Source: a virus (lineage: Duplodnaviria; Heunggongvirae; Uroviricota; Caudoviricetes). From it: DNA of 4,305 bases. The notes under the pieces were generated by a model, which was given only the letters and a program-made list of their open reading frames with translations, searched no databases and was not told the origin of the DNA. Numbering within the stretch: position 1 is the stretch's first letter; each line of letters begins with the position of its first letter. The position numbers and the translations under genes are program-made. Shown here one piece after another: positions 1,509 through 2,030 of this stretch. The stretch lies in IMG/VR virus record IMGVR_UViG_2582580934_000008, positions 1-4,305 of that record, one strand, 5' to 3'.

Positions 1509-2030
1509 ATGCGGGACTTCATTGCCGATAAAGAGTTATCTGACCACCAACCACTTCAGGAAAGTGACGCACTCAGCGGATCCATTGATGCCGCCAACGA
1601 CGACGAACACGAAGAAAACAAGAAAAAGCGTTCCTACAAAAAAGGAGCGACTTTACGGCTGGATGGTCCGATCGCCGGGCTTTGCTCTCTGGAAAAAGGC
1701 GCGGCATATATTGGGCTAACAAAATCTGCACTGCGCGTAGCCATTCATCGCGGTCAAATGCCGGGACACAAGACGCGCACAAACCCGGAAGATGAAAACT
1801 CAGACGGAGTATGGTGGTTTAACGCCAAAGAGTGGGACGCACTGGCTGACGAGCTACCGGAACTTGAGCCACCAGAATGGCACAACTGGAAAAGTTACTG
1901 GACGTATGACCGCCAGAAAAGAAAGTTCTTTCCAGCTAATAAAGAAGACTGCCAGACCATTAACGGTAAGCGAGTTTATACAGGCAGAAGTTCAAAGCTG
2001 GAGCGACTCAAAAGCAGCGAAGGCAACTAA
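1509..2030 (+). CDS. cox: Cox/Apl-like excisionase-type DNA-binding protein with N- and C-terminal extensions (173 aa)
   Basis: First rightward gene after the switch region; ATG 1509 preceded by AAGAGG (1496-1501) with a 7-nt spacer. Residues ~60-105 (AAYIGLTKSALRVAIHRGQMP ... DGVWWFNAKEW) resemble the recalled P2 Cox helix-turn-helix segment (IGKSTGAVRRMIDKGKLP ... EYWVYLPAWN). It is ~80 aa longer than canonical Cox, with an acidic N-terminal ~45 aa and a Trp-rich C-terminal tail. Confidence 0.65.
   Translation: MRDFIADKELSDHQPLQESDALSGSIDAANDDEHEENKKKRSYKKGATLRLDGPIAGLCSLEKGAAYIGLTKSALRVAIHRGQMPGHKTRTNPEDENSDGVWWFNAKEWDALADELPELEPPEWHNWKSYWTYDRQKRKFFPANKEDCQTINGKRVYTGRSSKLERLKSSEGN

Follow-up and report, generated by a model that had tools for sequence, protein, structure and literature searches.

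A long-form Cox-family protein of a P2-like prophage with an acidic N-terminal and a basic C-terminal appendage

Our analysis of the window (the whole 4,305-nt stretch of viral DNA under study) identifies the 173-aa product of an open reading frame (ORF) at positions 1509-2030 as a Cox-family protein, as judged from profile matches and a predicted fold. We consider it probable that this protein is the Cox of a P88/PhiECO5-type P2-like prophage, a member of the "larger" class of Cox proteins, which would form filaments, bind phased repeats, serve in both the lysis-lysogeny switch and excision, and perhaps be tuned by its two terminal appendages.

The window covers the early control region of a P2-like prophage, with the following genes and signals:

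Positions 1-993, minus strand: tyrosine integrase gene (int; Pfam Int_N and Phage_integrase; locus L004).
Positions 1063-1404, minus strand: gene for a 113-aa helix-turn-helix (HTH) immunity repressor, at the position of the P2 C-type repressor and divergent from cox (Pfam HTH_3, E 2.7e-11; phrog_147).
Positions 1497-1502, plus strand: Shine-Dalgarno sequence AGAGGA, 6 nt before the cox ATG, in a surrounding block (gaggataacaaATG) kept in all related loci.
Positions 1509-2030, plus strand: long-form cox, 173 aa plus a TAA stop codon, first gene of the early rightward operon.

The switch region, from the repressor gene to the cox ATG, is 104 nt long, and small early genes, including those for DUF4761 and DUF4754, follow downstream of cox. 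The window opens with the int stop codon, so the att arm lies off the window. The order int, divergent HTH repressor (106-115 aa), long Cox is kept in 10/10 related loci from four genera, and the repressor-cox spacer is 100-112 nt in related loci (Escherichia, Salmonella, Yersinia, and Serratia). In particular, cox is the first early gene, divergent from the repressor and adjoining int, in the window and in all 10 of these loci.

The ORF is genuine rather than a product of misassembly. It begins at the first start codon after a stop, behind a strong Shine-Dalgarno sequence, and is about twice the canonical size (173 aa, versus 91 aa for P2 Cox and 87 aa for 186 Apl), as originally predicted. 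The full-length 522-nt ORF is present in 311 of 5,426 complete E. coli genomes, where its RefSeq name is "Cox family DNA-binding protein", with copies in UMNK88 and FDN-11 that are 100% identical to the window cox; long Cox is also encoded by three sequenced phages (vB_EcoM-705R2, vB_EcoM-569R5, and a P88-like phage). The protein matches PHROG 23196 (174 positions) end to end, over residues 1-173, with an E value of 5.5e-113. A search of 5.8 billion proteins yielded 69 homologs, most of them 160-192 aa long and the least similar at about 41% identity; their genera are Escherichia, Shigella, Salmonella, Yersinia, and Serratia, and many of the homolog records are named merely "transcriptional regulator". 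A scan of genome contigs yielded one locus only, in E. albertii, and the diverged loci were obtained through exact-protein look-ups.

The original prediction had left room for a frameshift or for two genes joined by a sequencing error. It is extremely improbable that the long ORF owes its length to a sequencing or assembly error, or that a normal cox recently became fused by accident to neighbouring coding sequence. Frameshifted or shortened database entries do exist (P0066, P0067, P0072, and P0074), but the ORF is full-length and colinear in the 311 E. coli genomes, in the three phages, and in 160-192-aa homologs from four other genera; the indels of its N-terminal region are all in frame; and the ATG at 1509 is the sole start codon upstream of the winged helix. 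The fusion variant fares no better, since stand-alone homologs of either extension were absent from an exhaustive search. Specifically, a HMMER search with a full-length profile against 1.84 billion representatives returned 24 proteins only, all Cox-like or fragments of such proteins, and no stand-alone homolog of an extension. "Half" proteins of ~90 aa were considered as possible modules and set aside as fragments or frameshifted reads, some of which enter the +1-frame peptide of the window. The isolated N- and C-terminal extensions have no match in Pfam. Judged by sequence, the extensions are not borrowed domains.

The long Cox protein divides into the following segments:

Positions 1509-1544, plus strand: codons 1-12 (MRDFIADKELSD), a conserved N-terminal motif in which I5, L10, S11, and D12 are invariant or nearly so.
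Positions 1545-1619, plus strand: acidic linker, residues 13-37, probably disordered (pLDDT <50), with in-frame indels.
Positions 1620-1643, plus strand: basic patch KKKRSYKK, residues 38-45, directly before the Cox domain.
Positions 1680-1853, plus strand: predicted winged-helix DNA-binding core, residues 58-115, modelled as beta-alpha-alpha-beta-wing-beta-alpha (pLDDT about 76-82).
Positions 1854-1913, plus strand: Trp segment (LPELEPPEWHNWKSYWTYDR), residues 116-135, with W124 and W127 invariant.
Positions 1914-2027, plus strand: basic C-terminal tail, residues 136-173, with K145, R160, and an S/K-K-L-E motif conserved.

Assignment to the Cox family is supported by profile scores, by relatives that bridge to P2 Cox, and by a structural match. 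Residues 58-129 align to positions 11-86 of the 87-position Pfam model PF10743 (Phage_Cox) with 29.7 bits against a cut-off of 27.5, a margin of ~2 bits that is marginal taken alone; the subfamily member P0063 scores 55 bits against the same model, and bridging relatives of 100-127 aa score 77-86 bits. The AlphaFold2 (AF2) model, a monomer model of moderate confidence computed from a 54-sequence alignment (mean pLDDT 55), places a winged helix at about residues 58-115 between low-pLDDT ends (residues 1-50, <50; last 40 residues, 45-66), in agreement with the HTH-like core and flexible flanks anticipated in the original prediction; a monomer model of this kind cannot resolve the oligomerisation helix or the tail. 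A Foldseek search of the PDB with this model gave P2 Cox (4LHF) as the top match, with an E value of 2.4e-3, a probability of 1.00, a root-mean-square deviation of 2.8 Å over 68 columns, and a target-normalised TM-score of 0.65, followed by other excisionases (2KVV, Pukovnik Xis, and RdfS). The predicted Cox-like identity is thereby borne out.

In pairwise comparison, the protein resembles P2 Cox only weakly (28% over 47 aa), and an hhalign comparison of the family profile with the single P2 Cox sequence aligned the winged helix only, with a probability of 39%; the link to P2 Cox needed Pfam, the fold search, and the bridging relatives together. Of the families to which the core had been proposed to belong, Cox is matched and the others are not: 186 Apl has no detectable sequence similarity (BLASTP E 4.7), and the excisionase model NCBIfam TIGR01764 scores below threshold (13.4 versus 28.8 bits), so that the resemblance to excisionases is at the level of the fold only. 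PADLOC reports a weak mad1 match to the winged helix (E 0.003). 4LHF did not emerge when the PDB was searched by sequence, whether with the one protein or with the profile of its family; the matches obtained, among them a nitrous-oxide reductase (E 0.27), were due to chance. The PPEWHxW stretch at residues 121-129 (positions 1869-1895) resembles PPEWHGW of the mitochondrial complex I subunit NDUFA12, a phmmer look-alike in the PDB (E 1.4) that we treated as chance. The canonical Cox size of about 79-91 aa does not extend to the 173-aa protein or to the family members found here (100-192 aa); size is typical of the Cox family, not defining.

By alignment, the Trp segment corresponds to the oligomerisation helix of canonical Cox and so is no extension. 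P2 Cox residues 1-87 align without gaps to positions 1-87 of the Pfam model, so model positions equal P2 residue numbers, and the mapping of residues 58-129 onto model positions 11-86 places W124 and W127 on P2 W81 and W84. A MAFFT alignment with bridging relatives of 100-130 aa and P2 Cox gives the same result, placing W124, W127, and P85 on P2 W81, W84, and P38, in agreement with the Pfam coordinates. The invariant columns of this alignment are M1, P85 (P2 P38), P93 (P45), W109 (W62), W124 (W81), and W127 (W84); W124, W127, and P85 are invariant across all 54 family members, and the PPEWHxW motif, contained in residues 121-134 (PPEWHNWKSYWTYD), is carried by all shorter relatives too. [quoted passage not shown] The complete Cox domain comprises about residues 49-131 and consists of the winged helix and the C-terminal Trp helix, and the true add-ons are ~48 N-terminal residues and ~40 C-terminal residues (about 134-173). 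The "Trp-rich C-terminal extension" of ~65 residues that had been proposed must accordingly be redrawn: its Trp part belongs to the Cox domain, and the genuine add-on is the ~40-residue remainder.

The two genuine add-ons have opposite charge. Residues 1-38 contain 12 D/E and 3 K/R (net charge -9), the KKKRSYKK patch follows at residues 38-45, and residues 136-173 have a net charge of +6; the acidic N-terminal extension, the basic patch, and the basic tail were all present in the original prediction and stand. Across the family, the N-terminal region is 30-53 aa long and net negative in 54/54 members (-3 to -18, median -9), the basic patch has a median net charge of +3, and the C-terminal tail is net positive in 54/54 members (+3 to +10, median +7), with its RxSKLE motif retained in relatives at about 33-43% identity.

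The two add-ons also differ in the selection acting on them. In a codon alignment of ten diverged copies, dN/dS is lowest in the Trp segment (residues 116-135, about 0.06), and is 0.07-0.10 in the winged-helix core (58-115), 0.08-0.10 in the C-terminal tail (136-165), 0.11-0.18 in the basic patch and pre-core (39-57), and about 0.55 in the acidic linker (13-38), which has many indels, all in frame; the last eight residues (166-173) are close to neutral. The question of whether the extensions are conserved thus has a different answer at each end: the tail is constrained (dN/dS about 0.1), and the head varies in sequence and length while its charge is always net negative. By this pattern, the C-terminal tail is a constrained functional element, and the N-terminal region behaves as a disordered region selected for composition rather than for sequence. 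Among more distant Cox relatives, P0084, P0079, and P0076 carry acidic heads of differing lengths (30-80 aa) independently, P0082 and P0083 are without an acidic head, and relatives of 100-112 aa are without both appendages.

The selection data also bear on a suggestion that the 3′ part of the ORF hides an overlapping gene in the +1 frame (1792/1906-2247) that extends the downstream membrane protein. The frame is open as described, from an ATG at 1906 (ORF 1792-2247) into the membrane-protein gene at 2041-2247, and its open length is 96 codons in the window and, in the two closest relatives, 98 (L003) and 63 (L009); as a gene it does not stand, and we regard this reading as very improbable. 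In 7/10 diverged loci the +1 frame is shut within 3-19 codons of the cox stop codon, most relatives are without the membrane-protein gene, the Cox frame has a dN/dS of about 0.08-0.10 over the same stretch, and RefSeq annotates the membrane gene from 2041.

The membrane-protein gene itself encodes 68 aa (positions 2041-2247; phrog_14475) and starts 10 nt past the cox stop codon with no obvious Shine-Dalgarno sequence, and these two features suggest that its translation may be coupled to that of cox. Among the other loci examined, it is annotated in UMNK88 only and is absent from UTI89 and from eight diverged loci.

The 104-nt switch region and the 5′ end of cox contain candidate regulatory elements as follows:

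Positions 1389-1418, plus strand: candidate early promoter Pe (inferred), with a -35 element TTGACA at 1389-1394 and a -10 element TAACCT at 1413-1418.
Positions 1396-1408 and 1429-1441, plus strand: two direct repeats GATAACC(A/G)TTTGA (GATAACCnTTTGA), candidate repressor operators.
Positions 1450-1483, plus strand: four ACAA boxes at 1450, 1460, 1470, and 1480, 10 bp apart, a candidate Cox-binding array.
Positions 1499-1528, minus strand: candidate repressor promoter Pc (inferred), with a -35 element TCGGCA (1528 to 1523) within cox codons 5-7, an 18-bp spacer, and an extended -10 element TGtTATCCT (1507 to 1499) over the cox Shine-Dalgarno sequence; kept in 9/10 loci across immunity types.

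No promoter was called in the switch by the standard scan; Pe and Pc come from a laxer one. The Pe candidate is the positional homolog of TTGACA-18 bp-TATCCT/TAAAAT in related loci. The Pc candidate would account for a local excess of conservation at the DNA level. Specifically, in cox codons 1-12, 7/8 synonymous columns are fixed, versus 16/75 elsewhere (Fisher p = 4e-4), and these frozen sites are explained if Pc overlies them. The minus-strand element at 1499-1528 is thus probably Pc, embedded in the 5′ end of cox. If this assignment is correct, part of the conservation of the N-terminal motif MxxxIADKELSD is imposed by DNA, and two promoters that converge on each other enclose the (A/G)CAA array, an arrangement also found in phage 186. 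An inverted repeat at 1527-1540, GATAA-AGAG-TTATC, shares bases with the -35 hexamer of Pc and continues upstream of it.

An embedded promoter would also offer an origin for the N-terminal region in a simpler account, in which the protein works exactly like 91-aa P2 Cox, the appendages are neutral, and the N-terminal region arose when the start codon shifted upstream across Pc. The high dN/dS of the linker, its many indels, and its low pLDDT fit this account, as do the constraint on the first 12 codons by a promoter-like DNA element and the existence of 100-112-aa relatives without both appendages. We nevertheless judge it unlikely: the C-terminal tail is as constrained as the DNA-binding core and keeps RxSKLE in remote relatives, the N-terminal region is negative in every family member, and acidic heads recur in P0084, P0079, and P0076.

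The direct repeats at 1396-1441 are candidate operators of the 113-aa repressor and appear to be immunity-type-specific; across loci, the operator half of the switch varies by immunity type, and the cox half is conserved. A mosaic breakpoint lies at about 1449/1450 (window 1340-1450 compared with L004:5832-5942). In UMNK88, cox is 100% identical and the (A/G)CAA array is near-identical, and the operators are different (GATAACCnTTTGA twice in the window; CTTCACC..GGTGAAG in UMNK88); the UMNK88 repressor is 73% identical overall, with differences mostly in the first ~80 residues, including the HTH, and with the last 33 aa identical. In this comparison, the DNA-binding half of the repressor and the operators behave like an exchangeable immunity cassette set within conserved flanks.

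The ACAA boxes form a pattern that was reached in 0/200 shuffles. In the 12.5-kb UMNK88 locus, ACAA-N6-ACAA occurs 4 times versus 0.6 expected: three of the sites are in the switch, and the fourth is in the att arm, shortly after the int stop codon. Across genera, (A/G)CAA keeps its positions relative to the cox ATG (-59, -49, -39, and -29), with spacers that drift, and, in related loci, relative to the int stop codon at att (about -31, -21, and -11). Phased (A/G)CAA arrays are thus present at both the switch and att; the motif is short, and the individual sites are candidates. Column conservation is 0.88 for boxes versus 0.80 for spacers (p = 0.02), a weak difference that includes one locus (L007) misaligned by one base and on which we do not rely; with box conservation only slightly above that of the spacers, the array is suggestive, not proven.

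Repeat arrays at these two places are where P2 Cox and 186 Apl bind, and for this reason we infer DNA binding to (A/G)CAA repeats and a dual role in switch and excision. A narrower role, in which the protein is a Cro-like switch regulator only, another gene provides excision directionality, and the att-arm repeats are coincidental, strikes us as quite unlikely. It would suit the many records that say "transcriptional regulator", the sub-threshold TIGR01764 score, and the shortness of the (A/G)CAA motif, but Cox is the sole directionality factor in P2-type phages (AF063097 annotation), the window shows no further Xis-like gene, and the phased array beside the int stop codon is found across genera at the position where P2 Cox binds attP.

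The long Cox protein shares with P2 Cox (91 aa; 4LHF; PF10743) its Pfam family, its winged-helix fold, the residues P38/W81/W84 (P85/W124/W127 here), the place of its gene as the first of the early operon, divergent from the repressor and beside int, and direct-repeat arrays, here candidates, in the switch and beside int at att. It differs in having ~48 extra N-terminal residues (acidic, probably disordered, with a basic patch) and ~40 extra basic C-terminal residues, in its sequence (about 28% identity in the core), in its candidate box ((A/G)CAA with strict 10-bp phasing, versus the P2 cox-box TTAAA(G/C)NC(A/C)), and in the -35 element of Pc, which appears to lie inside its coding sequence. 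With 186 Apl (87 aa), it would share the dual function of excisionase and switch regulator. Apl sites are direct repeats one helical turn apart (PMC7498355); they occur at att and in the stretch between the lytic and lysogenic promoters, which converge (U32222 annotation). The apl coding region contains the -35 element of the 186 lysogenic promoter, and we propose the same placement in cox for that of Pc. Differences are that Apl pairs with a CI-type repressor, whereas the window protein pairs with a small C-type HTH repressor, and that the two sequences are unlike.

Lambda Xis-type excisionases (2IEF; Pukovnik Xis, 4J2N; RdfS, 8DGL) share the winged-helix fold and assemble into filaments along phased repeats; lambda Xis differs in having no switch-repressor role and no acidic N-terminal region. 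The C-terminal tail of lambda Xis contacts Int and sets a precedent for directionality factors with a functional tail. That tail is unstructured (PMC3936717).

The family, the name, and the larger size of long Cox are already on record, in RefSeq, Pfam, PHROGs, and a 2011 survey. In that survey, Nilsson and co-workers divide Cox proteins into two groups, of which group 2 is larger and predicted to have a winged HTH, with only six residues conserved between groups 1 and 2 (PMC3448106). The UTI89 prophage PhiECO5, one of the prophages in the survey, has a 173-aa Cox at the same dmsA-adjacent site, and because of its size we would place it in group 2. Between group 2 Cox proteins and the window protein we see no structural difference, and the part of the survey accessible to us contains neither a domain dissection nor a function for the extra residues (PMC3448106). 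Literature searches found no functional study of long-form Cox; "Cox" in a Serratia PP4 paper is the hazards model, not the protein.

In the mechanism that we propose, the winged helix would read DNA, and protomers would stack into a filament through the C-terminal Trp helix. Like P2 Cox and 186 Apl, long Cox would bind helically phased direct repeats, here (A/G)CAA every 10 bp. Bound between Pe and Pc, which converge, it would turn off synthesis of the repressor; bound beside int at attP, it would direct excision. The first 12 cox codons would also carry the -35 element and upstream region of Pc. The acidic head, together with the basic patch, may tune or autoinhibit DNA binding and filament growth by electrostatic competition, and the basic C-terminal tail may make extra contacts with the DNA backbone or with integrase, as the lambda Xis tail does. 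Electrostatic autoinhibition or tuning by the head and additional DNA or Int contacts by the tail are our best guess for the appendage roles, which we infer from composition and by analogy.

A more specific version is possible but doubtful. In it, the acidic head would imitate DNA within the same molecule and mask the adjoining basic patch and the winged helix until it is released, and the RxSKLE tail would be a peptide for docking on integrase or DNA. Release of the mask by protein concentration or by a partner (repressor, Int, or a host factor) would then sharpen the lysis-lysogeny and excision switch, and, if true, a DNA-mimic head and a docking tail would constitute a new regulatory layer in recombination directionality factors.

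Long Cox is present in about 6% of the E. coli genomes surveyed (canonical P2 cox, for comparison, in 750 of the same 5,426, about 14%), and it would therefore control the switch and excision in a major prophage lineage, whose hosts include ST131 and avian and porcine pathogenic strains. The corrected boundaries, with the Trp helix canonical and the head and tail as add-ons, provide clean truncation limits for experiments, and the predicted (A/G)CAA arrays and the Pc candidate embedded in the gene provide concrete DNA targets. The advance is incremental, and what the acidic head and the basic tail do is a modest but testable question.

The surroundings of the switch and cox vary between related prophages. 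Positions 2259-3000 form a variable cargo slot between cox, with the membrane-protein gene, and the DUF4761 gene. In the window, the slot contains a minus-strand 146-aa ORF of unknown function (phrog_2266; 2352-2792) with a small plus-strand ORF on either side, with no PADLOC matches in 2259-3000; the segment is missing in UMNK88, and unrelated genes occupy the same spot in other relatives. Toxin-antitoxin-like genes lie outside the int end of the prophage in L006 and L011, about 170-310 bp past the int stop codon, as a PemK toxin with a small partner and a RelE with an HTH partner (L006:1710-2320, L011:1516-2182), and ParE_like genes occur among the early genes downstream of cox (L005:7559-7816, L008:6816-7052, and L011:7553-7807). 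Upstream of cox in L008, the most divergent long-Cox locus (Serratia; 41% identity), there are not one but two HTH repressor-like genes in tandem (91 and 106 aa; L008:3294-3897).
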